Part shown: piece by piece, positions 359 to 16,756 of the stretch
Layout: each line of letters opens with the position of its first letter
Numbering within the stretch: the first letter of the stretch is position 1
From: Candidatus Aenigmatarchaeota archaeon
GTDB taxonomy: Archaea; Aenigmatarchaeota; Aenigmatarchaeia; Aenigmatarchaeales; JACQIB01
NCBI GenBank assembly: GCA_046760225.1
Contig: JBHIDR010000011.1
Span: 1 to 21,158, forward strand
Direction of reading: 5' to 3'
Length of the DNA stretch: 21,158 bases
Made by a program: the position numbers and the translations under genes
Notes under the pieces: generated by a model
Seen by the model: the letters and a program-made list of their open reading frames with translations, nothing else
Told to the model about the DNA's origin: nothing
Database searches by the model: none

Positions 359-1561
359 ATGATTGAGCTTCTCTTTGCAGTCATGTTGGGCTTGTTTGTT
401 GGCTGTGCCTGCGGCATATTCCCCGGCCTCCACCCAAACAGCACAATTCCCATCATACTTGGCTTCTCGTTCCTTTTCCAGCCCCTTGAAGCAGCAATTA
501 TCCTGATAAGTGCTGGTGTCACAAACTCGTTTGTTAGCTTCATACCAGCTGTCTTCCTGGGTGCTCCAGAAGCAGATTCAGCACTCTCTGTTCTCCCTGG
601 CCACAGGCTCCTCTTGCAGGGAAGGGGGTTTGAGGCAGTCAGGCTCACTGTGGTGGGCGGCCTTGGCGCTACATTTCTTGCAATACTGCTGTTGCCTGTT
701 TTTTCCTTGACCATACCATCTGTGTACCATCTTATACGGCCTGTCCTGCACTGGATTTTATTGGCCCTTGTGTTCTACATGATAATGGGTGAGGAGGGTT
801 TCAAGAACAAGATTCTGGCTGCTTATGTTTTCCTCTTGTCAGGCATGCTGGGCTATGTTGCAATTAATTATATGTCTGTTAAGGAAATTCTTTTCCCCCT
901 CCTTACAGGACTTTTCGGCCTTCCTCTTCTGTTGCTGTCAGTTAAAAGAAATGTCAAGCTGCCTGAAAGCTTTTCATTTGAATATGAAAGAATCAAGAGA
1001 AGATCAGTAATATCTGGTATTGGAATAGGGAGCCTGGCAGGCATTATAGCAGGCCTCCTCCCAGGATTGGGAAGCTCGCAGGCAACAGTGATTGCACAGG
1101 AAGCAGTTGGGCACAAGTCTGACAGGAATTTTCTCATAGCAATCGGCGGTGTGAACACCTCGGATGTCATCTATTCCCTTCTTGCGCTCTATCTCATAGG
1201 CAATGCCAGGAGCGGTATTGCTGTTGCAGTTGGTAACATGATTGCTGTTGGTTTCAACCATGTGCTGCTTTTCCTTTGCGTTATTGTTGCATCTGCAGGG
1301 GTTGCTGCTTACATAACAATAAGGATGACCAGGAAGTTTGTTTTCTTTCTGAAAAGAATGGATTACAGAAGGCTTTGCCTGCATATCTTTGTTCTCTTGT
1401 TCGCGCTCGTGGCAATCTTTTCAGGCTCCACAGGCCTGGTTGTTGCACTGGTCGCGCTCTCCATTGGCCTGATTCCGAACATTGTTGGTATCAAGAGGAG
1501 CCATTGTATGGGCTGTCTGCTATTGCCAACAATATTGCTCTTCGCCGGACTCAGCTTTTAG
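359..1561 (+). CDS. Archaeal TctA-like (tripartite tricarboxylate transporter family, COG1784-like) membrane protein
   Basis: About 400 aa, very hydrophobic. Motifs GIFPGLHPN, FIPAVFLGAP, SVLPGHRLLLQGRG, GLLPGLGSSQA and GNARSG, with an internal two-fold repeat. ATG at 359 is preferred over GTG at 335. Confidence 0.85.
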   Translation: MIELLFAVMLGLFVGCACGIFPGLHPNSTIPIILGFSFLFQPLEAAIILISAGVTNSFVSFIPAVFLGAPEADSALSVLPGHRLLLQGRGFEAVRLTVVGGLGATFLAILLLPVFSLTIPSVYHLIRPVLHWILLALVFYMIMGEEGFKNKILAAYVFLLSGMLGYVAINYMSVKEILFPLLTGLFGLPLLLLSVKRNVKLPESFSFEYERIKRRSVISGIGIGSLAGIIAGLLPGLGSSQATVIAQEAVGHKSDRNFLIAIGGVNTSDVIYSLLALYLIGNARSGIAVAVGNMIAVGFNHVLLFLCVIVASAGVAAYITIRMTRKFVFFLKRMDYRRLCLHIFVLLFALVAIFSGSTGLVVALVALSIGLIPNIVGIKRSHCMGCLLLPTILLFAGLSF

Positions 1562-4500
1562 GAACATCCACAAATTTTCCCAGTGAGCCATTGTAAGAGA
1601 AGTATATTTGTGAACCGCATTCAGGACAGGAACCGCTCAGCGGAGGTTTTTTCGAGAACCATCTGCACTTCTTGCATGAAACACCATCGCTTCCCTTGAG
1701 TGTTGTGTTCTCAGGTGATTCTGGTCTGGAATTGAGTATGTCCATGAGGCTCTTCTGCCTGCATCCTTCCAGCAGCTCTGTCCTGGTTATGTTGCATGCC
1801 TCAAATATCCTTTCCAGCGGCGGCAGCACCTGGTTCTCTATGTAATACTGTGAATCAATTTCCAGTCCCCTTTCTTTTACATACTTTGGGTCCTCTGCTC
1901 TTTTGGACAATAGGTCATTTCCCTTGATTATAACATAGCCCAGTCGCTCGCCAACAAGGTTCTGTCTTGTTGGGTCCCTCTTCCTTATTTTCTTTGCAAG
2001 CTCAACATGCGGCTGTATCCCGTCATATGCATCAAGCGACTTTGTTATTCCTTTCACAACTGTCAGCTTCTCCAGAGGCACTTTGCCGTTCGCCAAATCC
2101 TTCAACACAGCCCTCACATGCTGTGAGGCCTTGTTTATGTCCTGTTCCTTGAGAACAATTTCAAGCACTTCCTTCATTGTGTCAGATGTCAGCTCGCACC
2201 AGTCCCTTCTTATTGTCTCTATTCCTTTCATCAGTATCCTGTCCTTCCACTTGTTCCCCTTCTTGTCAAATGCCCAGCCAGCATATCTCTTCTTTGTCAG
2301 AATAAGAAACGTCCTGAATATCCTTTCAAAGCTGAGCTTGAGCCCGGGCAGCCTTTCTGTCACGAACCCCGAGATCTCGTTTCCTGTCTGCTCAGCAAGG
2401 TCAAGGTTTAGTATGTTCGTCTTTATGAAGATCGAGTCAGTATTATGAAGCAGCACCTGGCCGCAGCTGTCCACAAACATATGAGAACCCTCAACCTCTA
2501 AATCGTACACATGTCCTTCATAGGGTTCTTCAATTGTTTTTGTAATGACCTTTGCATTGTGTTTTGTGGTCGTTGTTATTGTATAGGCCTTTTTGGGCTC
2601 CCTGTATTTGATTGAGTACTTCATTCCTAAGAGCGTAAGAAGCAGACTGAAACCGCTTGCAAGCCTGAGTGATTTTGTAGTATAGCTGAAATTCCTCCTT
2701 TTGTACTGCTCTGTATAAGGCAGCTTCCTGTTCATGAACTTACGGGAACCGTCGCCAAGAACCATGTTATCCAGTACTATCCTCTGGTATCTTTCTGGTA
2801 AATTGAATACAAAATCCGGCAAGTATTTGCTGTCGCTCCTTTGCCCGCACAGCATTTTGAAAAAAACAGCTGCAAGCGAGTTCATCACCTGAAGCTTGTG
2901 TGTATTGTCCTTGTATTCAATACGCCTTCCATTGGAGTTTAGCCTTCTTATGCCCGGCATTGACGGTATTATAGACGCCTTGCAGTTTCTGAAAAGCAAT
3001 TTATAATCTTCTTTTAATTGTTTTAGCCATTTGATGTCACTCGATGCTATGCTTGCTCCCATGCGTGATTCAGTTGTTTCAGGTGTTGAGCTGCTGCCCT
3101 CTGAAACATAAGCGCCTATCAGCCTGCACAGCGCCTCCATCTCAGGTGTACCGGCATGTATCATTCTCTTTAGCATTACCGGCTCTTTCCTGTTCATCCA
3201 GCCGAAATAAAGAAGGCCGCCGTCAGTATGCACCATTGCTGTTTTCTGTCTTCCTTTGTAGAGGCTTTCCGTCCTGTATCCGCACAGGTGCTCAAAAAGG
3301 TCCAGTTCCTTGATGTTTCTTCCCCTGGGAATGCCCTCGACCCTTATCATGCGCCTTCCGCCCATGTCTTCTGGTCTTGTTTCTTCCAGTTCGCCGTTGC
3401 TTAGTGTCATTATGGAATGGTCCTGCGTTACAGCTGTCTCACCGAACTTCTGCACAACCCTGAATACCTTCTTGTCTGTTTTGTGGCGTATTACCTTTTT
3501 GATGGGCATCCAGCATGCTGTATGGGTCTTTGGGTCTACTGTAAGCGCCTTATAACCGCTTACACGCGCAGCTTCTTTGGGCCCTATATTGAAGACAGAG
3601 CCTGAGAATTCATTGAAAAGTTCTTCTATGTTCTTTGTTCTTATCGTCCCGCTCTCGTCCATGACTGTCACGAACCTTTCTGCTGTCACACTGTCCCCAT
3701 AAAGCACTTTCACAGGATGGTTGTCCTCAACAAGCTTCTTTGTCTTCATTATGTTTTCCCTTCCAAAGCTTGTTATTGAGTTTGCTATGTCCATCACATA
3801 GAGCCTTGACCTCATATAGCCAGTATAGCCATAGAGCGAGTTTGCCATTGTCTTCAGTGCGAGCTGCTTTGCGTTCAGTACCCTTGTTCTCTCAGGGTCT
3901 GTCTCCTTCCTTATCTGTTTCTTTACTTCTATTCTCGTGTCTATCATTTCACGTATGACCTTTGGAAGGACACCTTCCCTGGTTTCTTTTTTGACAAACT
4001 TGGTGCCATAGGGCGTCACAATATAATCAGAAGGTCCTTCATCAAGCAGTATTGTTGTCGGGCATATGTTGAACAGATTTATTATTGAAGGATAAAGTGA
4101 CTGGAAATCCAGAACAAGCGTGCACCCGGATGCATGCAGACCAGCAATAGGGTCGAGCACAAGCGCACCAGTAAGCCCTACTTTTTCCCTTTCAACCCTT
4201 CTCTTGCTTATTTCTGCTGCATCAGGCCTGCAGGGCATGAGTATCTTCCTCTTCTTGAACTCGTGCAGGATTTTGTTTTCATGCCTCTGTGCCTGGCCCC
4301 CGAATATGTCCTGCAGCAACAGCCCTGATACTTTTGAGAGCTCAAAGAACTTGTCAAGCATTCCCTTGTCAAGCACCAGCCTCAATGCCAGTTCAGAGTC
4401 CTTTCTGCAGTAGTCAACTATTTTCTTTACGCCCTTGAAGCCGCTGTTCCACAGTTCTCTCATCTCCTTTGGCCCGCCAACATCCATCTTTTCCATTCCA

Positions 4501-5465
4501 AGCATTTCCCTTGCAACAGTGGCAAGGTTGTACCTCCTGAAGCTTACCCATGGGTCTCTTTTCAGTATCTCAAAGGGGTCAACAATTACCCTACCACTTA
4601 TTGTTGTGACATATCCGCCCATTATTTTTCTCATGAACGGCCTCTTCTCAGTTCTCCCGAAGTCCCGCGGCACATTCAGGGCCTCCATCCTCTTCAGGAG
4701 ATAGGGCATGTCAAAGTTGTTGATGTTGTATCCTATCAGAACATCAGGGTCATAATCCTTTATCACATCAAGGAGTTTTTTCAGCATTTCCTCCTCATTT
4801 ACGCATTCAATGCAGTCGCTGTCAACCCTTATTGGCTTTGCAAGTATTGCCATGCTCTGCTTTCCCTTGTATGCCTGACTGAACCTGAGGGATATCATTA
4901 TTATCGGGTCCTTGTCAGGCTCAGGCATCCTGTCCTCGTTTGTTATGCATTCTATGTCCAGGGCAAGGTAGCGCAGCGGTATGTTCTCTGATCTGTCCAC
5001 TGGCTTTATGCTCTTTGCTTCGAATGCCCTGCACTTGACGGTGCTTGTCCTTGCAGGCATTCCCTCAACCTCGGCCCAGCCCATGCCAACAAGGCCATGG
5101 TCAGCCATGAACCTGTATATGAAAAGTATGTCTGCCTCATACGGTGTGCCGTATTTTTTTGTTATTTCCCTCATCTCTGGCACCTTTGAAGGGTCATTGC
5201 CTGTTATCTTCAGGACCCTTACTGGTTTCTCCCTGTACCCGATCGGAAGGAACATCTCCTCTGTTTGGGCAGATATCTCATGGCTCTTTTTTAGCTCCTC
5301 GATTATCTTGCCGAAATCGCTCTCCTTTGCATGGACATAGAAATATGGCCTTAGCTTGTCATAAAAAACACAGACCGTTGAGCCGTCCACCGCCTTGCCG
5401 AAAAGTCTTATCAATGGCTTGTTGTTCAGAATCGTGTAGTCGCAACCAAGAATCTGTATTTGCAT
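1551..5465 (-). CDS. polB: Family B DNA polymerase with proofreading exonuclease, intein-containing; about 887 aa after splicing
   Basis: Exonuclease motifs LALDIEC, GYNINNFDMPY and YCRKDS. Polymerase motifs LDFQSLYPSII, KTMANSLYGY and YGD|TDS (split by the intein), plus KKRYAG and KGIETIRRDW. The C-terminus has QKSLMDIL and CKKC...CPEC. Confidence 0.98.
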   Translation of the reverse strand: MQIQILGCDYTILNNKPLIRLFGKAVDGSTVCVFYDKLRPYFYVHAKESDFGKIIEELKKSHEISAQTEEMFLPIGYREKPVRVLKITGNDPSKVPEMREITKKYGTPYEADILFIYRFMADHGLVGMGWAEVEGMPARTSTVKCRAFEAKSIKPVDRSENIPLRYLALDIECITNEDRMPEPDKDPIIMISLRFSQAYKGKQSMAILAKPIRVDSDCIECVNEEEMLKKLLDVIKDYDPDVLIGYNINNFDMPYLLKRMEALNVPRDFGRTEKRPFMRKIMGGYVTTISGRVIVDPFEILKRDPWVSFRRYNLATVAREMLGMEKMDVGGPKEMRELWNSGFKGVKKIVDYCRKDSELALRLVLDKGMLDKFFELSKVSGLLLQDIFGGQAQRHENKILHEFKKRKILMPCRPDAAEISKRRVEREKVGLTGALVLDPIAGLHASGCTLVLDFQSLYPSIINLFNICPTTILLDEGPSDYIVTPYGTKFVKKETREGVLPKVIREMIDTRIEVKKQIRKETDPERTRVLNAKQLALKTMANSLYGYTGYMRSRLYVMDIANSITSFGRENIMKTKKLVEDNHPVKVLYGDSVTAERFVTVMDESGTIRTKNIEELFNEFSGSVFNIGPKEAARVSGYKALTVDPKTHTACWMPIKKVIRHKTDKKVFRVVQKFGETAVTQDHSIMTLSNGELEETRPEDMGGRRMIRVEGIPRGRNIKELDLFEHLCGYRTESLYKGRQKTAMVHTDGGLLYFGWMNRKEPVMLKRMIHAGTPEMEALCRLIGAYVSEGSSSTPETTESRMGASIASSDIKWLKQLKEDYKLLFRNCKASIIPSMPGIRRLNSNGRRIEYKDNTHKLQVMNSLAAVFFKMLCGQRSDSKYLPDFVFNLPERYQRIVLDNMVLGDGSRKFMNRKLPYTEQYKRRNFSYTTKSLRLASGFSLLLTLLGMKYSIKYREPKKAYTITTTTKHNAKVITKTIEEPYEGHVYDLEVEGSHMFVDSCGQVLLHNTDSIFIKTNILNLDLAEQTGNEISGFVTERLPGLKLSFERIFRTFLILTKKRYAGWAFDKKGNKWKDRILMKGIETIRRDWCELTSDTMKEVLEIVLKEQDINKASQHVRAVLKDLANGKVPLEKLTVVKGITKSLDAYDGIQPHVELAKKIRKRDPTRQNLVGERLGYVIIKGNDLLSKRAEDPKYVKERGLEIDSQYYIENQVLPPLERIFEACNITRTELLEGCRQKSLMDILNSRPESPENTTLKGSDGVSCKKCRWFSKKPPLSGSCPECGSQIYFSYNGSLGKFVDVPKS
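2442..3692 (-). mobile_element. Intein (417 aa) with LAGLIDADG homing endonuclease, inserted in PolB motif C (pol-c-type site)
   Basis: Starts with SVTAERFV right after VLYGD and ends HVYDLEVEGSHMFVDSCGQVLLHN before TDS. Block B is VTQDHSIM. LAGLIDADG-like blocks are LIGAYVSEG and VLDNMVLGDG. Removing it restores YGDTDS. Confidence 0.96.
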
Positions 5466-5488
5466 GCCAGTATATCATGCTTCAAGAT

Positions 5489-6331
5489 TTAAACTGTTTT
5501 CGGTATGTCCCTTATGTCCCTGGTCTCTAAATCTATCTCCACTGCCCTGTGTTTTGGCAGGCCTATGATTGTTGTTCCCTTGTAGTTCTTGGTAAAATGC
5601 TCGGTTGTTGTGGTTATGAAGATATCAGGAACAGGGTCTATCACATCATTCGGTGGCTTGTTCAGGTGCCTTCTCTTTAACAGCTCCAAGGGAACATCTT
5701 TCTCATTTATCCCGAGCTCCTTTGCAGCCTTTTTGTGGTCAGCCACATGCACAAGCACCAGCACTCCACAGCATTCATAGAACCTTGTGCCTTCAACCAG
5801 AATGTGCTTGCCTGTTGTTATTTTCATTGGGAATCTGGCAGGGCTCCTCAGGCCTGTGTCAGGAAATACAATCTTTTCAGCATAGAGCGTGTTGTTGTTT
5901 ACCCTTCCTACTGCCCCAACAACATCATCATCAAGGAGCTTTATGTCTGTGACAAGTCCCATGCTTCCTGTTGGGTCCTCTATCATATTGCCCCCTTTCA
6001 TCCCTATCACAGCCGAATGCCCCTTTGCGTTCCTTATTGAGACCGGGTTCTTGAGCTCGATCTTGTTCATCAGCAGTGCCTGCAGCTCCTTGTACCTCTG
6101 CGCATAAAGCCCCACCATGTCATGCACGCTGTAGTGTGTTGGATTTTTCAGCTCCTTGGCAATTGTTATTTGCATGCACATCTCCTCAGCCTCTCTCTTT
6201 TTTAGAACAAGCGGCTTCTCTTTCATCCTGCCCAACTTCTCAAAAACGAGCGCCGCCCTTTTTTCATCCTTTAGGAACTCAAGTGCATCAGGCTCAAGCA
6301 TTATACCCAGTTCCAGTATCTTCTTCAGCAT
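5489..6331 (-). CDS. Truncated DP1 (PolD small subunit)/B-subunit-like protein, predicted catalytically inactive
   Basis: DP1-like segments YAQRYKELQALL, VIGM...IEDPTG...LLDDDVVGAVG...IVFPD (OB-fold region) and LLKRRHL...VIDPVPDIF...YKG...IDLET. Only 280 aa, with none of the DxH, GDxxD, GNHD or GHxH metal motifs. Confidence 0.75.
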   Translation of the reverse strand: MLKKILELGIMLEPDALEFLKDEKRAALVFEKLGRMKEKPLVLKKREAEEMCMQITIAKELKNPTHYSVHDMVGLYAQRYKELQALLMNKIELKNPVSIRNAKGHSAVIGMKGGNMIEDPTGSMGLVTDIKLLDDDVVGAVGRVNNNTLYAEKIVFPDTGLRSPARFPMKITTGKHILVEGTRFYECCGVLVLVHVADHKKAAKELGINEKDVPLELLKRRHLNKPPNDVIDPVPDIFITTTTEHFTKNYKGTTIIGLPKHRAVEIDLETRDIRDIPKTV

Positions 6332-6339
6332 GTTTATCC

Positions 6340-7530
6340 TTAGAATATTTGTTCAAGAACATTCTTTACCTTTTTGGTTATGGGCCCGGAAAGCGCCAGG
6401 TTTATTGTTCTTGTCCTCCCGTACCTTCCCCTGGATATTACTTTTGTTGTTATTATGCCGAAAAGGTCTAGCTCTGCTATGAGGTCGCTTATCCTTCTCT
6501 GGGTAAGGCACTTTATTCCTGCTCTCCTGCAGTTCTCCTGGTAGAGCTCCAGCACATCCCCCGTGTTTATGTTCCTCTGCTTCTCAGAAAGCTGTATTAT
6601 TGAATAAAGCACAGCCTTGCTCTGTTTTGGCTGTGCCTTTATTGTCTCAAGTGTCCTGTCCATGTCTATTTTCTCTTCAGCATGGTCAACATGCTTTATG
6701 CTTATTGCCTCATCACCCTGCCTTTCAGCAATCTCAGCCGACACCCTCAGAAGATCAAGCGCTCTTCTTGCATCACCATGCTCCTGTGCAGCAAGTGCAG
6801 CACATTTCTCTATTACACCATCCCCAACTGTTTCTTCTCTAAATGCTATTTCAGCCCTTGCCTTGAGTATGTCCCTGAGCTGCATTGCATTGTATGGAGG
6901 AAAAATCAGCTCCTCCTCACTCAGGCTGCTCCTTACTCTGGGGTCAAGGCTGTTTATGAACCCCAGATCATTTGTTATACCTATTATGCAGACACGCGAG
7001 TTGTTCAGCTCCTCATTTATCCGCGTAAGGTTGTACAGCACCTCGTCACCTGTCTTCTTAACAAGAGTGTCTATTTCATCTATTATGAGTATGAGTGTCT
7101 GCTTTTCCTTGTCCAGAAGAGAGAAAAAGCATGAATATATCTGGTCAGTTGGCAGGCCAGTAAAAGGCACCTCCCTGCCAAGTTCCTTTGATAAATAAGC
7201 CAGCAACCTGTATTCTGTGTCAGCAGAATGCCTCATCTTGCAGTTCGCATATATCACTCTTATTCTGTGGCCATTAGCAGCCCTTCCAAGCTCACCTGTC
7301 ACCATTGTTGAAACAAGGGACTTGCCAGTGCCTGTCCTGCCGTATATGAATATGTTGCTGGGCCTGTCGCCTTTCAGAGCAGGAGCAAGTATCCTGGCTA
7401 TCTCCTCAATCTGCTTTTCCCTGTGCGGAATATTCCTTGGAGTAAATGATATTGAGAGCGCCCCCCTGTTAAGTATAATTGGTCTTGCATTCATGAATTG
7501 TGAAAAAAGCTCTTGTACTTTTTCTGACAT
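6340..7530 (-). CDS. cdc6: Orc1/Cdc6 replication initiator
   Basis: Walker A GRTGTGKS, Walker B IIDEID, LDPRVRSSL, FPPYNA, HGDARRALDLLR, and the winged-helix end SRGRYGRT. A GGTGA Shine-Dalgarno sequence precedes ATG at 7530. Confidence 0.97.
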   Translation of the reverse strand: MSEKVQELFSQFMNARPIILNRGALSISFTPRNIPHREKQIEEIARILAPALKGDRPSNIFIYGRTGTGKSLVSTMVTGELGRAANGHRIRVIYANCKMRHSADTEYRLLAYLSKELGREVPFTGLPTDQIYSCFFSLLDKEKQTLILIIDEIDTLVKKTGDEVLYNLTRINEELNNSRVCIIGITNDLGFINSLDPRVRSSLSEEELIFPPYNAMQLRDILKARAEIAFREETVGDGVIEKCAALAAQEHGDARRALDLLRVSAEIAERQGDEAISIKHVDHAEEKIDMDRTLETIKAQPKQSKAVLYSIIQLSEKQRNINTGDVLELYQENCRRAGIKCLTQRRISDLIAELDLFGIITTKVISRGRYGRTRTINLALSGPITKKVKNVLEQIF

Positions 7531-7559
7531 GATTATCACCCTTTTTTCTTCTGGAGTTT

Positions 7560-7950
7560 ATCTTTAACCATGTGAACATATTTATTGTTTTCTCCATGTG
7601 AAACAAAGGGGTCAAAATGAAGTTGCATTAGAAATAAAGGGGTTCATATGAAAGGCGAAAATACGTTGATAACCGAAGAAATAGGGTGTTTTATGCCTTG
7701 TGAACATCTCCCGTTCTATGTGAAACCAGAGAACTTCATTTTAACTTCATAAATTACCATATAACAATGTTATAATTATCTCCATAAGCAGTTTTTTCCA
7801 CCTGAAATCCCACCCCATGCTTTCCTATAAAGAAAATAAATAATAGAAATAAGAAAGAAAACATACCCCTACTTCCTATAACAATGTTATATATTATTAT
7901 AAACACACAATCTTATCTACTAACATGGGTTCGACAAGAAACCATGGGGC
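7560..7950. other. Probable replication origin (oriC) with ORB-like repeats and AT-rich unwinding tracts
   Basis: Non-coding stretch of about 400 bp upstream of cdc6. TCCATGTGAAACAAAGGGG (7593-7611) and TGCATTAGAAATAAAGGGG (7624-7642) match the archaeal ORB core plus G-string pattern. Further copies lie at 7714, 7796 and 7930, with weaker inverted ones at 7813 and 7866. AT-rich tracts lie at about 7737-7780, 7826-7862 and 7877-7903. Confidence 0.85.
7760..7891. repeat. Two identical copies of the 15-bp palindrome TATAACA-A-TGTTATA (7760-7774 and 7877-7891)
   Basis: Read directly from the sequence: 7-bp inverted arms with a 1-nt spacer, and starts 117 bp apart. Confidence 0.9.
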
Positions 7951-7951
7951 C

Positions 7952-8692
7952 CTACACACCACTAAAGTTCTGTTTCAGTGTTTCAAGAAGAACCTTTACA
8001 TCACTTCCTTTTGAAACAGCAAGGGGTATGCCTTCTATTTCAGCTATTCTCTTTGCAAGCTCATCAACATTCTCGCTCCTGTTGCCATGCAATACCACAA
8101 GCCCTGGTTTGAGGTTTGTTACTTTGAGCGCAACCATGCTGCTCTTGCCCCTGTGCGCACCAGTAAAGATCAGGGCCCTTTCACTTGTTAACCCATAAAG
8201 CTTGACCAGCTCCATTGGCGGAAGCTCTATTATTGCCTTCAGGCTGTCAATAACAGTATAACCATACAGCTTGCCCTCATTGCCCCCTCTTGTTACAAAG
8301 TTGGCTGAAAGCGACTTGCAGAAGTCCTTTGTTGATACAGGGGATGAGAACTCCTTCAGGTCAAGCACAGCATCAGAAAGCGCAGCCTTTGTTGGGAATG
8401 TTGAGAATTCCTTTATGACCTTGCCACCTACTTTTTCATCAAGCGCAATCATGGCGTCAACTATTCTCTTTATTACCTTTATCCCAGGGCTCTTCCTCCT
8501 GCTGTTCTCATAATCACTTATAACAGAGGGCATTACCTTCATTTGTTCAGCAAGTGTTCTTTGTGGTATTTTGAAGATGTTCCTCCATTTCTGTATTGTC
8601 TTGCCAGCATCAGAACTCAGCACAATCTCACCAGCAATTCTTTTTGCAACAGATTCCTTTGCAAGAGCCTCTTCATTGACCATGACAATCAT
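7952..8692 (-). CDS. Archaeal XRE-family HTH transcriptional regulator (COG1709-like)
   Basis: RIAGEIVLS...GKTIQKWRNIFKIPQRTLAEQMKVMPSVISDYENSRRKSPG forms the HTH. The C-terminal domain has YGYTVIDS, LYGLTSERALIFTG and KPGLVVLHG. The start may be 8683. Confidence 0.88.
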   Translation of the reverse strand: MIVMVNEEALAKESVAKRIAGEIVLSSDAGKTIQKWRNIFKIPQRTLAEQMKVMPSVISDYENSRRKSPGIKVIKRIVDAMIALDEKVGGKVIKEFSTFPTKAALSDAVLDLKEFSSPVSTKDFCKSLSANFVTRGGNEGKLYGYTVIDSLKAIIELPPMELVKLYGLTSERALIFTGAHRGKSSMVALKVTNLKPGLVVLHGNRSENVDELAKRIAEIEGIPLAVSKGSDVKVLLETLKQNFSGV

Positions 8693-8800
8693 ATTGTCGA
8701 ACTAGATATTTATAATTAACGATTATTTAAACTCATTTCCGGAAATTAGAGTATAGATAATAATTTATATGCTTTCAGAGCATAATGTGATAGTGATTTA

Positions 8801-9343
8801 ATGCCAATAAAGGTAAAGGATGTGATGTCAGCGCGCGTTATTTCATGCAGCCCAGGCACAACAGTTGCTGCAGCAGCAAAGACAATGAGGGATGAGGATG
8901 TTGGAAGCATTGTAATAATTGAAGGCAAGAAACCAGTTGGTATAGCAACACGGGAGGACATAACCAACAAGGTTGCAGCAGAGAACAAGCAGCCATCAGA
9001 AGTATTGGTAAAGGATATAATGACATCCCCTGTGATAACAGCTGCCTCTGATGAGGATCTTGCTGATGTTGCAAGAAGGATGAACCAGTTCGGCTATGAA
9101 AGAATGCCGGTCAAGTACCTTGACAAGCTTGTTGGTTTTATCTCAGTCAGGGACATACTCAGGGTATCACCCGGACTATTGGAATTAATGAAGGAGAGCC
9201 TTGAGGATATTGTGCCAGAGGGATTTGAGGCAGAGTTTAATGCTGGTGACTGCGAGCTGTGTGGCAATTTTGATGAGCAATTAAGAAACGTGAATGACCG
9301 CTGGGTCTGTGCTGCATGCCAGGATGAGGCAGCCGAGATCTGA
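8801..9343 (+). CDS. CBS-pair protein with C-terminal Zn ribbon
   Basis: Two CBS repeats (VKDVMS...PVGIATREDI and VKDIMTSPVIT...LVGFISVRDIL) followed by CELCG...WVCAAC. Confidence 0.9.
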   Translation: MPIKVKDVMSARVISCSPGTTVAAAAKTMRDEDVGSIVIIEGKKPVGIATREDITNKVAAENKQPSEVLVKDIMTSPVITAASDEDLADVARRMNQFGYERMPVKYLDKLVGFISVRDILRVSPGLLELMKESLEDIVPEGFEAEFNAGDCELCGNFDEQLRNVNDRWVCAACQDEAAEI

Positions 9344-10531: not shown

Positions 10532-10894
10532 ATGACTAAGCAAGGAGAAAAAGAAGAACTGCTGGCTCTGCTTGGCAAGGTCAAGCACATGCCAGTTATA
10601 GTCGAAGGAAAACGCGATCAAAACGTTTTACGTTTATTTGGTTTCACAAAAATCACCCAAATAAGAAAGGGGATATATGAGACAGCTGAGGAGGCTGTCA
10701 AGAAGCATAAAAGAATCATGATCCTCACTGACTTCGACAGGGAAGGCAGCAAAATAGCTGCCCAATTAACTCTTTTTCTCCAGAAACTCGGATGCAAGGT
10801 TGAGAGCAATATGAGAAGGAAAATCAAGTTCGCATTCGTCAAGAACAAGATAACGGCAATAGAGGAACTGAAATCATTGTTAAAAAAGAGGTGA
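10532..10894 (+). CDS. Small TOPRIM-domain protein (UPF0292/COG1658-like)
   Basis: TOPRIM motifs VIVEGKRD and ILTDFDREG; lies directly upstream of dnaG, as is common in archaea. Confidence 0.9.
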   Translation: MTKQGEKEELLALLGKVKHMPVIVEGKRDQNVLRLFGFTKITQIRKGIYETAEEAVKKHKRIMILTDFDREGSKIAAQLTLFLQKLGCKVESNMRRKIKFAFVKNKITAIEELKSLLKKR

Positions 10895-10899
10895 ATTAA

Positions 10900-12063
10900 A
10901 TGGCAAAATTAGCACAAACAGCCTCAAAGTACGTTATATACGCTAAATTTGAGGCAGACGGCACAGTTGAAAAGCCAGATGTCATAGGCGCTGTGTTTGG
11001 TCAGACAGAGGGCCTTCTGGGTCCTGAAATGGACCTGAGGGAGCTCCAGCAAACAGGAAGAATAGGAAGGATTGATGTTGACCTCAGGACAGAGGCAGGA
11101 AAGACCCGCGGAACCATAATAATACCGTCTTCATTGGGCTCAGCTGAAACAGCCATGATAGCAGCCACAATAGAGACAATAGAGCGTGTTGGTCCGTGTA
11201 CATCAAAGATAAAAGTAGAGAAAATAGACGATGTCAGGATAGGAAAAAGGAGTTATGTTGTGAGCAGGGCAAAGGAGCTTCTTGGAAAAATGTTATCCCA
11301 GGGCGTGCCAGAGACACAGGAAATATCAAAAGAGATCAAGAGGGCAGTAAGAACATCTGAGATAGTCAAGTACAAAGGGCTGCCTGCTGGCCCGAATGTG
11401 GAATCAGGCGACGGTATAATCGTGGTTGAAGGAAGAGCTGATGTTGTGAACCTCTTGAAGGCTGGTGTGAAGAACACAATAGCCATAGAGGGCACATCCA
11501 TCCCAAATGCAATAAAGGAGCTTTCAAAGGAAAGGGAGACAACAGTCTTTCTTGATGGTGACCGCGGCGGAGACCTCATACTGAAGGAAATGGCAGCAGT
11601 TGCTGATGTGGACTTTGTTGCAAGGGCACCTGAGGGCAAGGAAGTCGAGGAGCTGAGCAAGAAAGAGGTATTCAAGGCCCTGAGGGAAAAGGCACCGCTT
11701 ACAGAAGTAAAGGCACCAAGGGCACGTGCCAGAAGGAAAGAGGAAAGGCCCTACAAACCAAAGAGGATTGAACCGGAAAAGGCTGAGAAGTTCAAGAAAA
11801 TAATCAATGACCTGACAGGCACAAGAGCAGCATACTTCCTTGATAACGAAGGCAGCCCAATTGGCAAGGTTCCTGTTAAGGAGATGTTCAATGCAATCAA
11901 GGAGCTTGATGCAAAGACCCTTTTGTTTGACGGAGACATAGACCAGAAGCTGATAAGCTTCTGCTCCAAAAGAGGAATCAAGCACATAGTTGGAATGAGA
12001 ATCAGGGGCAGGATAAGCGTTCCGAGCAACATTGAGGTCCTGACAGCAAAGGACCTCGATTGA
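10900..12063 (+). CDS. dnaG: Archaeal DnaG-like protein (TOPRIM; exosome-associated in characterised archaea)
   Basis: VEKPDVIGAVFGQTEGLLG, DLRELQQTGRIGRI, IIVVEGRADV, FLDGDRGG and RAPEGKEVEEL; GAGGTGA Shine-Dalgarno sequence. Confidence 0.96.
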   Translation: MAKLAQTASKYVIYAKFEADGTVEKPDVIGAVFGQTEGLLGPEMDLRELQQTGRIGRIDVDLRTEAGKTRGTIIIPSSLGSAETAMIAATIETIERVGPCTSKIKVEKIDDVRIGKRSYVVSRAKELLGKMLSQGVPETQEISKEIKRAVRTSEIVKYKGLPAGPNVESGDGIIVVEGRADVVNLLKAGVKNTIAIEGTSIPNAIKELSKERETTVFLDGDRGGDLILKEMAAVADVDFVARAPEGKEVEELSKKEVFKALREKAPLTEVKAPRARARRKEERPYKPKRIEPEKAEKFKKIINDLTGTRAAYFLDNEGSPIGKVPVKEMFNAIKELDAKTLLFDGDIDQKLISFCSKRGIKHIVGMRIRGRISVPSNIEVLTAKDLD

Positions 12064-13162: not shown

Positions 13163-14239
13163 ATGGTTGATCCACGTGTTAAAAAACTTGCTGAAATACT
13201 GGTTGATTATTGTGTTTTCGTGAAGAAGGGCGAACGTGTGATAATAGATGGATCAGTTGAGGCATCTGACCTCATAAAAGAGATATACAGACTTGTGATA
13301 AAACGTGGTGCATACCCATGGGATGACATATCAATCCCGGGGTTAGGTTATATATTCTATAAGAATGCCTCCAAAGAACAGCTGAAAAAATATCCTAAGA
13401 TATGGGAATATGTTGTAAAGAGGTCTCAGAAATACATAGGCATAGGCTCCCCAATAAACACGCGCGAATTCTCGAACATAGACCCCAAGAGGATAGCAAT
13501 AAGACAGAAGGTCACGCGGCCCATAACAGACTACATAGTCAATGCAAGACCAAAGATATACCGCGTTACCCTAGATTACCCAACACCTGCTCTTGCACAG
13601 GACGCTGAGATGAGCATGGAAGAATATGAGGACTTTTTGTTCAGTGCATGCCTGCTTGACTGGAAAAAGCTCTCAAAGAGACTGAAGAGGCTACAGAAAA
13701 TACTGAACAGAGGCAAGACAATCAGGATTGTTGGCAAGGACACAGACATTTCCATGAACATATACAAGAAGTCTTTTGTTATAGATGATGGTCATGAGAA
13801 TATGCCAGGAGGAGAAATATTCTGCGCACCTGAAAAGTATTCTGCAAACGGTCATATACGCTTCACCTATCCTGCAATAAGGCAAGGAGTTGAAGTCACC
13901 AACATCTATCTTGAGTTCAAGAAAGGAAAGGTTGTAAAGGCAACAGCAGACAAGAACCAGAAGTTCCTCAGGCAGATGATTGCAATGGATGCTGGCTCTA
14001 AATACCTCGGCGAACTGGGAATAGGAATGAACCCCAAAGTAACCAAGTTCACAAAGAACCTGCTCTTTGATGAAAAGATAGGCGGCACAATACACCTTGC
14101 ACTCGGAATGGCTTACAAGGAATGCGGCGAGCCAAACAAATCAGCACTCCACTGGGACATTGTCAAGGACTTGCGCAAAGGTGGAAAATTAATCTTGGAC
14201 GGAAAGACAATCCAAAGAAACGGGAAATGGTTAGTGTAA
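13163..14239 (+). CDS. Thermophilic metallo-aminopeptidase, M29 family (AmpS/AmpT-like)
   Basis: DPRVKKLAEILVDY, AQDAEMS, NMPGGEIFCAP, LGELGIG, LFDEKIGGTIHLALGMAY and SALHWDIV; GAGGTG Shine-Dalgarno sequence before ATG at 13163. Confidence 0.95.
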   Translation: MVDPRVKKLAEILVDYCVFVKKGERVIIDGSVEASDLIKEIYRLVIKRGAYPWDDISIPGLGYIFYKNASKEQLKKYPKIWEYVVKRSQKYIGIGSPINTREFSNIDPKRIAIRQKVTRPITDYIVNARPKIYRVTLDYPTPALAQDAEMSMEEYEDFLFSACLLDWKKLSKRLKRLQKILNRGKTIRIVGKDTDISMNIYKKSFVIDDGHENMPGGEIFCAPEKYSANGHIRFTYPAIRQGVEVTNIYLEFKKGKVVKATADKNQKFLRQMIAMDAGSKYLGELGIGMNPKVTKFTKNLLFDEKIGGTIHLALGMAYKECGEPNKSALHWDIVKDLRKGGKLILDGKTIQRNGKWLV

Positions 14240-15499
14240 TTTTTTCTTGAGGTCTTTGAGTGCTTCAGGTAGAGAGAGCGGATTCTTCTTGTCCTTTACC
14301 TTTTCGTATGCCTGCTTGCCCAAACAGTTGACAAGTTTTATTCCAAGCTTCTTACATGCTCTTTCAAGTGCAACATAGCTTTCTGCTGTTGGTTTGAAAT
14401 AGCAGTAATACTTTTTATACTTCTGCGACTTCAGATAGTTTTCAATTCTTTTCTGGTTGACCTTTATGTACAGCTTCTTTATCTCCCTTGTCTCTTCCCA
14501 TTCTGGCCAGTCATACTTGTTGAAGGGATAATGATCAACAAATTCGTAAGGTATCACTCCTGGTGAGCTTATTGCAATCAAGTGCAACCTTGGCCTTATT
14601 TTTAATTTGTCTATTGCTGAAAATATTGCCTTGTGTAGTTTTGAGTGGAAATATGGTTTCCTGTATGCGCATGTAATGAAGAGAGCAATATCATTCTTTT
14701 CCGGCCGCTCATAGAATCTTGAAAAATAATCATGCCATACAATATAGAAGGGATGTACAAGCTCTTTCTTTGTCGCACCCCTGATAAAGGGCTGCTCATG
14801 AAACCTTGGTATGAATGCGAAATTATCAAACTCCTTTTCACAATCCTTATACGGTTTTGTTAATTTATCAAACTCTTTTCTGTCAAGTGGCTCCCATTTG
14901 CCACTTACCCACATGTTATAAAGCGGCGCTCTTGAGTGTGGAAAAACATTTATCAGAACAATGCTGTCTGAATAATTCCTTGCAAACCCAACAGATTTCT
15001 TTAGGCTTTTCTTGCGGTCCTTTACCCAGGGAAGGCCCACCATCAGATATGTTCTCAGCCCGCATTTGTTTCTTTTCAATGTCTCTGCTGCCCTAACATA
15101 ATCCTCAGCAATGAACCCCTTTTTATATTTCTTTAATATCTTGTCGTCAGCGATCTCAAGACCAATTGCAACCGTAAGCTTCACTCCTTTGAAATCTGTT
15201 AGATTTTCATCTGTGATGAATTCTGGTCTGCTTTCTATTACTAGTTCTTTTATACCCCCCTGCATGCATTTCTGCGCAACATACCTTCTTACCATTCTGG
15301 GAAACTGCTTGTCATCCAGAAAACTTCCGCTTGCAAATATCTTGAGCCTTTTTACTTTTTTTATTTTCCTGAACTTATCATCAATAGCCTTCTTTAGCCT
15401 GTGTATCTGGGGTGGTGGGCCAACAAGCTTTCCCCAGCCGCATCCAAAACATTCTCCCCATGCGCATTTCCCACCAGAGAGTATTATTGTCCTTTCCAT
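14231..15499 (-). CDS. Fusion of a RaSEA-like radical SAM domain and an ArcS-like (DUF5591) domain; putative archaeosine biosynthesis enzyme
   Basis: The N-terminal part has CAWGECFGC, KIFASGSFLD, IESRPEFI, VAIGLE, KGF and RTYLM (RaSEA/TIGR01210-like). The C-terminal part has ALFITCAYRKPYFHSKLH, HLIAISSPGVIPYEF and YPFNKYDW (ArcS-like PCS.RKPY...SP.G.VP.E...YP...YD pattern). Confidence 0.82.
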   Translation of the reverse strand: MERTIILSGGKCAWGECFGCGWGKLVGPPPQIHRLKKAIDDKFRKIKKVKRLKIFASGSFLDDKQFPRMVRRYVAQKCMQGGIKELVIESRPEFITDENLTDFKGVKLTVAIGLEIADDKILKKYKKGFIAEDYVRAAETLKRNKCGLRTYLMVGLPWVKDRKKSLKKSVGFARNYSDSIVLINVFPHSRAPLYNMWVSGKWEPLDRKEFDKLTKPYKDCEKEFDNFAFIPRFHEQPFIRGATKKELVHPFYIVWHDYFSRFYERPEKNDIALFITCAYRKPYFHSKLHKAIFSAIDKLKIRPRLHLIAISSPGVIPYEFVDHYPFNKYDWPEWEETREIKKLYIKVNQKRIENYLKSQKYKKYYCYFKPTAESYVALERACKKLGIKLVNCLGKQAYEKVKDKKNPLSLPEALKDLKKKLH

Positions 15500-15535: not shown

Positions 15536-16321
15536 ATGAAAAAACCATGGCAAATCTACGGCTACCCCAAGCCCAAATCAGAGGCCTCGCGTGGAACACT
15601 ATCCCTGGTGGATTGGGAGATATATTCCGGGATAGAAATACCTGAAAAGCCAGTTTTCATAAGGCTTGATGGCTGGAAGTTCCATCCGCTTTGCAAGCGC
15701 CTGAAGCTGAAGAAGCCCTATGACAGGCGTTTTGCTTCTGCCTTGGTCAAGACATCAAAAGAGTTTTTCAAAACCTTCAGCTGTAACCTTGCCTACATAT
15801 TCTCAGATGAGATCAACCTCCTCTTTCTGAAAGTACCTGGCTTCAAGAGAATAGAAAAAATAGATTCTGTTTTTGCAGGAATAGCCAGCAGCACATTTTC
15901 AGAACTAATGAAGACAAAGGCATCTTTTGACTGCCGCTGCATCCCAATGCTCAAAAAATCAGACATAATTAATTATCTTATCTGGCGCCAGGCAGAGTGC
16001 TTCCGCAACCATAACAACAGCTGGGCCCACCAAATGCTAATGAAATCTGGCTTATCAGCAAGCCGTGCACAGAAAAGACTATCAGGCATGAACACAGCCC
16101 AGATACAAAAGTTGGTCAAAGAAAGGTTCAACCTCGACCTCTTTGCAACCCCAGCATGGCAGAGAAGCGGAATTCTCCTTTACAAGGAAAAGTATTTGAA
16201 GGAAGGCTATGACCCAATAAAAAAGAAAAAGGTCAAGGTTTTCCGCTTCAAGGTCAAGGAAGACTGGTCTCCGCCCGACTTCAGGGACAAAGGCAAAAAA
16301 TTTATAAATAGCTTTCTCTAA
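15536..16321 (+). CDS. thg1: tRNA(His) guanylyltransferase Thg1-like protein (3'-5' polymerase)
   Basis: IRLDGWKFH, AYIFSDEINLLF, RIEKIDS, FDCR, YLIWRQAECFRN and PAWQRSG. Confidence 0.94.
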   Translation: MKKPWQIYGYPKPKSEASRGTLSLVDWEIYSGIEIPEKPVFIRLDGWKFHPLCKRLKLKKPYDRRFASALVKTSKEFFKTFSCNLAYIFSDEINLLFLKVPGFKRIEKIDSVFAGIASSTFSELMKTKASFDCRCIPMLKKSDIINYLIWRQAECFRNHNNSWAHQMLMKSGLSASRAQKRLSGMNTAQIQKLVKERFNLDLFATPAWQRSGILLYKEKYLKEGYDPIKKKKVKVFRFKVKEDWSPPDFRDKGKKFINSFL

Positions 16322-16329
16322 TTAGAGGA

Positions 16330-16722
16330 ATGTGCGATTATAAAAAAGCAGTTATCTCAGGTGTGATATCCTATGCAATATTGTTCCTGATAATATCAGC
16401 ACTGATGGGAACACCGCTCTGGACAAGTGGGTACATCAACTACATAAATCTCATAATAGTATTCATCGTTGTATTCCTTGTGGCCCAGAAATATTATTTC
16501 AGAGGCATCAAACCCAAGGCGAACGAGGGTCTGGTGTTAGGAATAATCATGGCAATAGTTGCTTTCTTAATAGAGATACCAGTGATGGCATATGGATTTG
16601 CAGCTGACATGGGAATGAACTGGTTCACACAGTGGAACATACTCACAGGATACATCCTAACAATAATAGCAGCACTATTAGCGTCAAAGACACTTGGGAA
16701 AACCACAAGAAAGAAAAAGTAA
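16330..16722 (+). CDS. Small membrane protein of unknown function, about 4 TM helices
   Basis: 130 aa with four hydrophobic segments and a basic tail; GAGGA Shine-Dalgarno sequence; starts 8 nt after thg1. Confidence 0.8.
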   Translation: MCDYKKAVISGVISYAILFLIISALMGTPLWTSGYINYINLIIVFIVVFLVAQKYYFRGIKPKANEGLVLGIIMAIVAFLIEIPVMAYGFAADMGMNWFTQWNILTGYILTIIAALLASKTLGKTTRKKK

Positions 16723-16756
16723 GGCCTTTATATTTTCTTTTTTCTTTATTCTTTTA

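Follow-up and report, generated by a model that had tools for sequence, protein, structure and literature searches.

The locus described here raises the question of which replicative polymerase an Aenigmatarchaeota archaeon keeps beside its replication origin, and with which partner. In the window (the whole stretch of 21,158 nt that was analysed), the list of open reading frames gives three co-oriented genes on the minus strand: orc1/cdc6 at 6340-7530, a DP1-like (B-subunit-like) gene encoding 280 aa at 5489-6331, and an intein-bearing polB at 1551-5465. The gaps between them are 8 nt from the cdc6 stop codon to the ATG of the DP1-like gene and 23 nt from the DP1-like stop codon to the ATG of polB, so that the coordinates and the spacing given in a preliminary description of this DNA were reproduced. 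The reading that we favor, and consider probable, is that the last two genes encode a two-subunit family-B replicase in the form it takes in Aenigmatarchaeota, located in an old oriC-cdc6-DP1-(DP2) island.

The open reading frame of the initiator gene begins with a GTG at 7539, and the ATG at 7530 is its likely start, in agreement with the relatives, which align from residue 4. The product clears the NCBIfam equivalog NF001625, of ORC1 type, with 508.8 bits against a cut-off of 501 and matches the Pfam families Cdc6_lid and Cdc6_C. Upstream of it lies an AT-rich intergenic region (7540-7951; GC 0.39) that carries repeats and a palindrome pair, with a sign change of the GC skew nearby; these features point to a probable replication origin adjoining cdc6, where the preliminary description had placed one. 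Four ORB-like copies of CYWTGTGAAM stand on the plus strand inside 160 nt (7568-7577, 7594-7603, 7696-7705 and 7716-7725), and five matches occur in the whole window against a shuffle mean of 0.61, with five or more in none of 100 shuffles. Two of the ORB-like copies are extended by 27-nt repeats containing AAAGGGGT (7595-7621 and 7626-7652). Furthermore, the palindrome TATAACAATGTTATA is present in two copies around an AT-rich stretch (7760-7774 and 7877-7891), a count that 0 of 100 shuffles reached. The exact sequence TATAACANTGTTATA was found in 7 of the 19 related loci introduced below, in 6 of those 7 just upstream of cdc6. CYWTGTGAAM was rejected as an ORB common to the relatives, in which it gave four single scattered matches across the 19 loci; since it is barely matched there, it is either specific to this genome or no ORB, and it is kept here as a local repeat.

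The DP1-like protein has no match in Pfam. Nevertheless, the NCBIfam model of the PolD small subunit (NF003118) matches its residues 3-159 (5.8e-11), and a profile built from 40 sequences of its family recovers solved DP1 chains, with 6knb_A at 2.7e-28. When ten representatives were looked up, one cluster of the family was found under the name [quoted passage not shown] An AF2 model of the protein (pLDDT 95.6) has eight Pyrococcus abyssi DP1 chains as its top Foldseek matches in the PDB (E 2e-11 to 2.3e-10), with Pol epsilon subunit 2 and Pol delta p50 next in rank, the structural matches having TM scores of 0.56 to 0.63 on the query. Positions 58-180 of the family profile align to DP1 residues 124-265, the OB fold, and positions 200-276 to the C-terminal part of the phosphodiesterase, while the middle is absent. 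Three regions can be delimited on this basis. Residues 1-52 (6176-6331, minus strand) form a helical N-terminal region, with helices modelled at residues 2-51 in the position of the DP1 N-domain; at the sequence level the resemblance to that domain is weak (E 0.3 for 2kxe_A; 3.2 bits against residues 3-57 of 6knb_A). Residues 69-157 (5861-6127, minus strand) comprise a long helix and the OB fold, with the motif EDPTG, and residues 168-280 (5492-5830, minus strand), with the motifs LLKRRHL, PDIF and NYKGTTII, are what is left of the phosphodiesterase fold, namely its C-terminal half.

The OB fold is thus present, and the calcineurin-like phosphodiesterase fold is partial, its N-terminal half being gone. 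The preliminary description had stated that all phosphoesterase ligands are absent, which holds for motifs I-III, whose stretch is deleted, and for motif V (GHxH), which reads TTTEH; for motif IV the loss is less certain, since H195 lies one alignment column off the motif IV histidine. The full set of metal and catalytic ligands from motifs I-V by which an active DP1 is recognized is not found in this protein. Moreover, ligand loss alone understates the change, given that half of the fold has also disappeared. The label "paralogue" used earlier, which would imply a true DP1 elsewhere in the genome, should also be revised: the ancestral oriC-cdc6-DP1 linkage is retained here, and an orthologue, the DP1 proper to this lineage, is therefore the more likely identity of the protein.

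The polB gene (1551-5465, minus strand) encodes a precursor of 1304 aa, or 887 aa after the predicted splicing. Its product matches the Pfam families DNA_pol_B (6.2e-103) and DNA_pol_B_exo1 (4.8e-39) and contains Exo I, II and III as well as motifs A and B; the YGD|TDS of motif C would become whole once the intein is spliced out. The best match of the N-extein among solved sequences is human Pol delta's catalytic subunit (2.8e-66), whose 227.6 bits slightly exceed the 217 bits of Thermococcales PolB, a comparison of scores. The intein itself (residues 592-1008, 417 aa; 2442-3692, minus strand) is inserted in motif C and is recognized by the Pfam domains Intein_splicing and LAGLIDADG_3 and by TIGR01443 for the intein C-terminus. 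As judged from its sequence, it has the marks of class 1, namely S592, H1007-N1008, T1009 at the +1 position, an endonuclease domain and a conserved host motif.

Where ordinary archaeal PolBs end, this one continues. At residues 1237-1244 (1734-1757, minus strand) it carries QKSLMDIL, a putative PIP-like box by the PIP consensus, and the Q of this motif hardly varies, being shared by at least 90% of 17 tails. A four-cysteine zinc module (C1264, C1267, C1280 and C1283) and the last 21 residues follow (1554-1676, minus strand), in accordance with the four-cysteine ending noticed earlier. NCBIfam models of the DP2 C-terminus match residues 1261-1303 (NF011302, 1.6e-5), and the three best PDB matches of a tail profile are all zinc finger III (Zn-III) of DP2, from 5.3e-7 (6knb_B) to 6.3e-6, aligned over DP2 residues 1127-1156 and 1119-1148. 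The four cysteines are invariant in all 17 rows of the alignment (the window and 16 complete tails). In the zinc loop of the window, KKPPLSG, KK takes the place of the RR of DP2 and most relatives, a departure that speaks against the binding discussed below. The comparison with eukaryotic Cys tails made in the preliminary description stands as far as the presence of a C-terminal Cys module is concerned, but the module is a lone ribbon of the DP2 Zn-III type, with no helical bundle, and not a two-module domain.

Conservation of the gene pair was evaluated in 19 related loci (12 of them titled Aenigmatarchaeota), which were found through the DP1-like protein with a six-row alignment. The DP1-like gene lies directly upstream of polB on the same strand in 19/19 of these loci, a sample that, being seeded with the DP1-like protein, would miss Zn-tailed PolBs that have no DP1 neighbor. 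The gap between the two genes ranges from -1 to 82 nt and is 9 nt or less in 12 of the loci, and each of the 17 PolBs of the relatives whose 3' region falls inside the locus carries the Cys module. Zn-tailed PolBs were found 24 in number. The synteny expected from the preliminary description is therefore borne out for DP1-like and polB. It is not for cdc6, which directly precedes the pair in only 7/19 loci and so is no fixed feature. The idea that the cdc6-adjacent loci form a single clade was discarded, as a PolB tree (unrooted, from a quick search) spreads them over at least three clusters.

This neighborhood also bears on the possibility that the two genes came with a mobile element or virus that has integrated here, and do not encode the chromosomal replicase. 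A viral or mobile provenance has been suggested for the PolBs of group B6 (PMC7544198), and the polB gene carries an intein with a homing endonuclease. However, the pair is situated between orc1/cdc6 with the origin-like region, on one side, and housekeeping genes (a TctA transporter, DnaG and tRNA modification), the neighborhood is conserved across relatives, and neither an integrase nor a tRNA gene nor a boundary formed by repeats was seen, all of which make a mobile origin of the locus very unlikely.

The proposal of the preliminary description that PolB stands in the position of DP2 and may have the inactive DP1 relative as its partner agrees with the predicted complex of the two proteins. 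The prediction scored 0.73 in three runs, whereas the best of three controls scored 0.01, and it passed a mark that 116 of 157 solved complexes clear, as do 2 of 215 mismatched pairs. Between runs, at least 96% of the contacts are shared, with a partner pLDDT of at least 69. In the model, the zinc-finger loop of PolB docks onto the OB fold and preceding helix of the DP1-like protein, with an interface at residues 65-80, 111-123 and 134-135 of the latter. Partner confidence in these predictions is only about 70. It is important to consider that the pass may reflect the memory by the model of solved complexes of DP1 with DP2 or of the Pol alpha and epsilon C-terminal domains with their B subunits. 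Additionally, the helices through which PolD's catalytic subunit touches the phosphodiesterase are missing, as is half of that domain, so that the interface would be smaller than any solved one. Taken with the Zn-III homology, the conserved adjacency, the invariant cysteines and the binding reported for the clade in PMC12680538, the modelled complex suggests that the PolB and the 280-aa protein of the window bind each other physically.

A competing explanation is that PolB acts alone, using its zinc ribbon for contacts with DNA or PCNA, while the 280-aa protein works at the origin independently of PolB (e.g., with Cdc6 or GINS), and that the two genes are neighbors only because they lie in one replication island. 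In archaeal PolD the Zn-III region also lies close to the nascent duplex (PMC6355029), and the old linkage of cdc6 and DP1 has been read as a connection between Cdc6 and DP1 (PMC2643942), both of which would suit such a division. Transcription of polB may be separate as well: the TATA-like TTTAAAT noted earlier was found at 5487-5493 (minus strand), where it overlaps the DP1-like stop codon and is centered some 25 nt upstream of the start codon of polB, and relatives with wide gaps between the two genes have TATA-like boxes at comparable distances, so that polB may be uncoupled from the genes before it. A scan for sigma-70 promoters and intrinsic terminators was set aside as inapplicable to archaea. 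Against a solitary PolB, the tail is exactly the element by which DP2 binds DP1; according to PMC6355029, the PolD Zn-III loop (KxRRxP) docks at the groove between the OB and phosphodiesterase domains of DP1, and the affinity of a 20-residue Zn-III peptide for DP1 is nanomolar. Furthermore, adjacency to polB is universal among the sampled loci and adjacency to cdc6 is not, and a two-hybrid interaction has been reported for the clade (PMC12680538). We thus regard a PolB that works without the DP1-like protein as improbable.

The eukaryote-like pairing of a PolB with an inactive DP1 is already described for Aenigmatarchaeota, and the window is a further member of that group; the architecture is not new, since Kazlauskas et al. 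(2020; PMC7544198) proposed it for Aenigmarchaeota. Their text defines the PolB group B6-aenigma1 with one DP2-like zinc motif, places the group B6 PolBs in a Delta-like clade and states that most Aenigmarchaeota are without DP2 and that DP1 is inactive there. More recently, AlphaFold3 and yeast two-hybrid assays were reported in which DP1 binds PolB-DP2CTD in Aenigmatarchaeota (PMC12680538, 2025), a lineage without DP2 yet with DP1, the tail being termed a "degenerate DP2CTD." The two-hybrid pair consisted of Aenigmatarchaeota proteins other than those of the window. Compared with B6-aenigma1 and PolB-DP2CTD, the window shares a PolB with human Pol delta as its best solved sequence match, a single C-terminal C4 motif like Zn-III and an inactive DP1, and nothing essential differs; its nearest relatives are titled Aenigmatarchaeota. 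No earlier statement of DP1-polB gene adjacency was found in the main text and supplement of PMC7544198 as available to us, nor anything on Aenigmatarchaeota gene order in the available text of PMC12680538, and the half-deleted phosphodiesterase, the DP1-polB operon beside cdc6 and the origin, and the intein were not found in either of these texts. What is added here is the half-deleted phosphodiesterase, a graded decay series in relatives, the origin-proximal synteny and the intein.

These publications suggest that DP2 is likewise missing from the genome of the window, of which 21 kb are covered here. That limited coverage leaves room for a DP2, active or degenerate, encoded elsewhere as the partner of the 280-aa protein, with PolB as an independent second polymerase; the legend of Figure S16 in PMC7544198 includes DP2 sequences from Aenigmarchaeota in its alignment, implying that some members retain a DP2 relative. 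However, most of the phylum is said in the same source to be without DP2, and PMC12680538 describes a lineage that retains DP1 without it. PolD depends on a nuclease activity and on a phosphodiesterase half that are both missing from the 280-aa protein, and the slot after DP1 is taken by polB in every one of the 19 loci. A partnership with a distant DP2 therefore appears highly improbable.

The comparison with better-known systems helps to place the two-subunit family-B replicase that we favor. With archaeal PolD (P. abyssi, PDB 6HMS/6T8H) it shares a homologous small subunit and, in the predicted complex, the dock of the Zn-III loop at the OB side of DP1, and with Thermococcales PolD the gene order oriC-cdc6-DP1-catalytic subunit. 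In contrast, the catalytic subunit is a family-B enzyme and not the double-psi beta-barrel DP2, proofreading resides in PolB and not in DP1, and the C-terminal helices of DP2 and half of the DP1 phosphodiesterase are absent. Eukaryotic Pol alpha, delta and epsilon (PDB 4Y97, 5VBN and 6TNY) likewise combine a family-B subunit, a C-terminal Cys module and a nuclease-dead, DP1-derived partner (whose binding is, in the window, a prediction), and their B subunits are strong structural matches of the DP1-like model; they differ in having two Cys modules, a helical bundle and a full-length inactive phosphodiesterase, as opposed to the lone module, missing bundle and halved fold of the window. The PolB3-DP2CTD of Baldrarchaeia (PMC12680538) is another archaeal fusion of a PolB with a DP2 C-terminal domain that is reported to bind DP1 in a lineage without DP2. 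According to the legend of Extended Data Fig. 6 of that source, Baldrarchaeia have a full-length, eukaryote-like domain, while that of Aenigmatarchaeota is shorter and has another predicted structure.

In the mechanism we propose, the intein would splice out to give an 887-aa PolB that is active as a polymerase and carries a 3'-5' exonuclease of its own, and behind the PIP-like box a single zinc ribbon derived from DP2 zinc finger III would follow. The basic, proline-rich loop (KKPPLSG) and the C-terminal strand would dock on the OB fold and preceding helix of the 280-aa protein. Since such a PolB would proofread by itself, the phosphodiesterase of DP1 would be dispensable, and half of it would have been deleted in the lineage of the window. 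The remaining N-terminal helices, OB fold and half phosphodiesterase would then probably serve, as DP1 and the B subunits of eukaryotes suggest by analogy, as a non-catalytic adaptor between the polymerase and the replisome (GINS/CMG). Binding of Gins51 by the DP1 N-terminal domain has been described (PMC9023282).

The DP1s found beside Zn-tailed PolBs occur in three states. Some, of about 380 to 400 aa, have phosphodiesterase motifs I, II, IV and V, which are kept in 4 of the 19 relatives (L004, L009, L013 and L016); others are full length with the ligands gone; and the rest become progressively shorter, down to the half-fold form of 280 aa. Tentatively, and with some doubt on our part, this series, taken with the place of polB in precisely the DP2 slot of the ancient oriC-cdc6-DP1-DP2 island, could represent a stepwise decay of the second subunit within one phylum, with the window as its end-point: DP2 would have been displaced in situ by a PolB keeping only Zn-III, and an N-domain, OB fold and half phosphodiesterase, together with a zinc module some 40 residues long, would make up a minimal working B-subunit interface.

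To our knowledge, all eukaryotic replicative polymerases are chimeras in which a family-B subunit holds a nuclease-dead descendant of DP1. The C-terminal Cys domain that grips this descendant was inherited from PolD. Aenigmatarchaeota are among the few archaeal lineages with a eukaryote-like chimera of this kind, published in 2020 and partly tested in 2025, and the window, while raising no new question, is a clean and complete example that unites an origin-proximal operon context, the most reduced form of DP1 seen here, a single-zinc-finger tail and an intein. It is chiefly of use as a compact candidate for the biochemistry and structure of a minimal interface between PolB and a B subunit, and it is also a data point on the decay of the DP1 nuclease once PolB proofreads. 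If the stepwise decay is true, it would amount to a natural dissection of the nuclease loss in eukaryotic B subunits.

The three minus-strand genes that the preliminary description had placed side by side are arranged as it said. They are orc1/cdc6 at 6340-7530 (the open reading frame opens with a GTG at 7539, while alignments with relatives begin at the ATG at 7530), a DP1-like gene at 5489-6331 encoding 280 aa and starting 8 nt past the cdc6 stop, and polB at 1551-5465, encoding a 1304-aa precursor and starting 23 nt past the DP1-like stop. The TTTAAAT reported upstream of polB was located at 5487-5493; it shares bases with the DP1-like stop codon, and its centre and the polB ATG are about 25 nt apart. 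The cdc6 product passes the NCBIfam ORC1-type equivalog NF001625 (508.8 bits against a cut-off of 501) and contains the Cdc6 lid and winged-helix domains. A TctA-family transporter gene at 335-1561 on the plus strand converges with polB, and the 3' ends overlap by 11 nt.

PolB carries exonuclease motifs I (D170-x-E), II (N247...FD) and III (Y352...D356) and polymerase motifs A (D453) and B (K538), while motif C is interrupted between YGD and TDS by a 417-aa intein (residues 592-1008; 2442-3692, minus strand) with a Ser start, a His-Asn end, Thr at +1 and a LAGLIDADG domain. The predicted spliced protein has 887 aa, and its relatives have 886 to 915 aa. The insert is absent from all 18 related polB genes that reach the site (locus L006 ends before it), and among 24 tail-matching proteins, the window's own included, the sole other intein-bearing PolB is P0172, of 1376 aa. 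Among solved structures, the N-extein has its best sequence match in the human Pol delta catalytic subunit (2.8e-66, 227.6 bits), with Thermococcales PolB marginally behind at 217 bits; the Pol delta match is compatible with the "Delta-like" position that PMC7544198 gives to group B6.

As had been claimed, PolB ends in a four-Cys module, C1264-x2-C-x12-C-x2-C1283, followed by 21 residues. It is preceded by a linker and by QKSLMDIL (residues 1237-1244), which is PIP-like. Residues 1261-1303 match the NCBIfam PolD large-subunit models (1.6e-5), and a profile of 17 tails, in which all four Cys are invariant, has as its three best solved matches the large PolD subunit DP2, at residues 1127-1156 in T. 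kodakarensis (5.3e-7) and 1119-1148 and 1124-1153 in P. abyssi. The matched DP2 region is zinc finger III (Zn-III). In PolD, the Zn-III loop with its KxRRxP motif occupies a groove at the DP1 OB/phosphodiesterase (PDE) interface, a 20-residue peptide from Zn-III has nanomolar affinity for DP1, and two more DP2 helices contact PDE loops (Raia et al. 2019, PMC6355029, in the portions available). Compared with PolD DP2, the Aenigmatarchaeota tails lack the helices and retain the loop (YRRxPL in the consensus, SKKPPL in the window), which matches the "degenerate DP2CTD" wording in the accessible part of PMC12680538.

The DP1-like protein has no match in Pfam, and its residues 3-159 match the NCBIfam PolD small-subunit model (5.8e-11). 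An exhaustive search with it returned 285 cluster representatives at E <=0.001, 93 of them at <=1e-10; lengths among the best 150 of the 285 are all 125 to 398 aa, and therefore this is a family of short proteins rather than pieces of ordinary DP1. A 40-member profile of the family matches solved DP1 structures (6knb_A, 2.7e-28; P. abyssi 6t8h_A, 5.4e-25), with positions 58-180 aligning with the OB fold and positions 200-276 with the C-terminal portion of the PDE domain (6knb_A residues 393-494). The DP1 stretch between these two parts, which bears catalytic motifs I-III, has no counterpart in the profile; motif V reads TTTEH, and a single His sits one alignment column off the motif IV His. 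The middle gene had been described as DP1-like and devoid of phosphoesterase ligands, which is correct and even understated, because half of the PDE fold is missing too. With the confident AlphaFold2 model (mean pLDDT 95.6, pTM 0.86) as query, P. abyssi DP1 chains take the first eight places among the Foldseek matches in the PDB (E from 2e-11 to 2.3e-10), ahead of human Pol epsilon subunit 2, Pol delta p50, the Pol zeta accessory subunit and the Pol alpha B subunit.

Scanning one genome per species with a pattern gave 19 related loci (12 titled Aenigmatarchaeota and 7 "uncultured archaeon"), and polB lies directly downstream of the DP1 relative on the same strand in every one, with gaps of -1 to 82 nt (<=9 nt in 12 of the 19). 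Every one of the 17 PolBs with its 3' region inside the locus carries the Cys module; L006 and L012 stop short of it, and the L003 contig ends just past it. The comparison proposed earlier thus upholds the adjacency of the DP1-like gene and a Zn-tailed PolB, with the scope that all loci were found through the DP1 relative, so that a Zn-tailed PolB lacking such a neighbour is invisible to the scan. The cdc6 gene is directly upstream of the DP1 relative in 7 of the 19 loci (L001, L002, L003, L005, L006, L008 and L019), spread over at least three clusters of a quick unrooted PolB tree; L007, with 93 nt upstream, is uninformative on this point.

Structure prediction, likewise suggested beforehand, was run on the DP1-like protein (40-row alignment) with PolB residues 1215-1304 (17-row alignment) and a zinc ion. 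The complex scored 0.73 in each of three runs, against 0.01 for the best of three controls, under custom alignments and a riding zinc ion that differ from the conditions of the tool's calibration. Of 157 solved complexes, 116 attain the pass mark, as do 2 of 215 mismatched pairs; a pass indicates likeness rather than binding of these very proteins, and may reflect model memory, because PolD, Pol alpha and Pol epsilon complexes have been solved. Contacts agree by at least 96% between runs, with partner pLDDT of at least 69. The predicted interface comprises DP1-like residues 65-80 (the long helix that precedes the OB fold), 111-123 (OB, with EDPTG), 134-135 and 226, and PolB residues 1262, 1272-1278 (KKPPLSG), 1281, 1287-1289 and 1296-1303, with L1276 predicted in a pocket made by the DP1-like helix and the EDPTG turn.

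Taken together, the DP1-like protein and PolB quite probably form a two-subunit replicase, which is the most likely reading. PolB would perform both polymerization and proofreading, while its Zn-III ribbon would grip the OB side of a DP1 whose nuclease is dead and whose PDE fold is half deleted. Eukaryotic B subunits offer a parallel for linking a polymerase to GINS/CMG. The DP1 N-domain contacts Gins51 in T. kodakarensis (PMC9023282, available text), and by analogy with both cases the kept N-terminal region of the DP1-like protein probably ties the enzyme to GINS/CMG. According to the accessible text of Kazlauskas et al. 2020 (PMC7544198), the PolB group B6-aenigma1 has one zinc motif of DP2 type, DP2 is missing from most Aenigmarchaeota, an inactive DP1 group exists, and replacement of DP2 by this PolB was proposed. 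The rival readings, in which PolB works on its own, the DP1-like protein partners a hidden DP2, or the pair stems from a mobile element, are, even jointly, rather unlikely. In the available part of PMC12680538 (2025), DP1 binds PolB-DP2CTD in AlphaFold3 and yeast two-hybrid analyses, in both Aenigmatarchaeota and Baldrarchaeia. The pairing inferred in the preliminary description is therefore right and a rediscovery, because these two papers already report it.

Upstream of cdc6, the intergenic region 7540-7951, where GC falls to 0.39, likely holds a replication origin, to judge from its sequence. It contains four same-strand copies of the ORB-like word CYWTGTGAAM inside 160 nt (the whole window has five matches; shuffled versions averaged 0.61, and none of 100 had as many as five), two of which lengthen to 27-nt repeats with AAAGGGGT. 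The word is not recurrent among relatives, with four single scattered matches across the 19 loci. A palindrome, TATAACAATGTTATA, occurs as two exact copies (7760-7774 and 7877-7891) either side of an AT-rich stretch and, as TATAACANTGTTATA, in 7 of the 19 related loci (L001 at 6557, L002 at 432, L003 at 3385, L005 at 6646, L006 at 6580 and 6669, L019 at 6416 and L014 at 6803). Six of these seven have it just upstream of cdc6, at a usual distance of 150-250 nt in Aenigmatarchaeota loci; in the L014 locus, which has no cdc6, it precedes the DP1 gene. The palindrome may serve as an origin element or else as an operator, perhaps one bound by the neighboring HTH protein. The GC-skew sign change near 8500 is not independent origin evidence, because it coincides with a gene-strand switch. 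Linkage of oriC, cdc6 and DP1 is described for Thermococcales, Halobacteriales and Methanosarcinales, with DP2 also in the P. abyssi island (Berthon et al. 2008, PMC2643942, in the text available).

Across the origin-like region from cdc6, and co-oriented with it, lies the gene of a 246-aa HTH_3 protein (4.8e-5; 7952-8692, minus strand); L001, L003 and L006 have proteins of like size and start sequence in the same place. About 3 kb from the region, the gene of a small Toprim-like protein of 120 aa (PRK04017 family) stands immediately before that of archaeal DnaG (NF003108, 4e-145; 10532-12063 for the two, plus strand), adding to the local replication-gene island. The window also holds a tRNA-modification cluster (14231-15499, minus; 15536-16321 and 16694-18439, plus), in which a 422-aa protein joins a RaSEA-like radical-SAM N-part (TIGR01210, 1.5e-31, residues 4-182) to an ArcS-alpha-like C-part (235-389), a fusion that looks unusual, alongside a Thg1-like guanylyltransferase and TgtA. 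A large protein (871 aa or more; 18420-21035, minus strand), whose reading frame may run past the window end, contains a PGF-pre-PGF domain (1.2e-22) and is probably a surface protein.

The DP1 relatives of the loci, aligned with the window protein (all but that of L012, whose PolB is identical to that of L011), form a graded series. Those of L004, L009, L013 and L016 (383-393 aa) keep motifs I (SDxH), II (GD), IV (HG) and V (HxH) with motif III altered; L014 and L017 are partial; L007, L010, L011, L015 and L018 are full length and ligand-less; L002, L003, L005, L006, L008 and L019 have 314-361 aa; and in L001 and the window (276-280 aa) the whole region is deleted. Motif III, whose canonical form is GNHD, reads KGE[VI]D or RGHLE in the first four (genes at about 7980-9160), and the L004 protein still matches Pfam Metallophos_2 (7.7e-12). 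Going by these motifs, the four DP1s might still be nucleases beside Zn-tailed PolBs.

In many loci, a stand-alone metallophosphoesterase of about 225 aa lies 1-2 kb upstream of the DP1-polB pair (L004 6246-6923; by size and start sequence also L005, L008-L010, L012-L015 and L017-L019), often beside an Hjc-like resolvase and a CBS-domain protein. The Pfam basis is L004 only (Metallophos, 1.3e-16; Hjc, 1e-8), and the CBS assignment in relatives comes from the CBS-like gene of the window (8801-9343) and similar start sequences; no such metallophosphoesterase was seen within the window.

No earlier statement of the graded series or the PDE deletion was found in the literature searched, as represented by the available portions of PMC7544198 and its supplement. 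A tentative scenario, to which we give slightly less than even chances, is that DP2 was displaced in situ in this lineage and that DP1 then decayed stepwise to a minimal interface.
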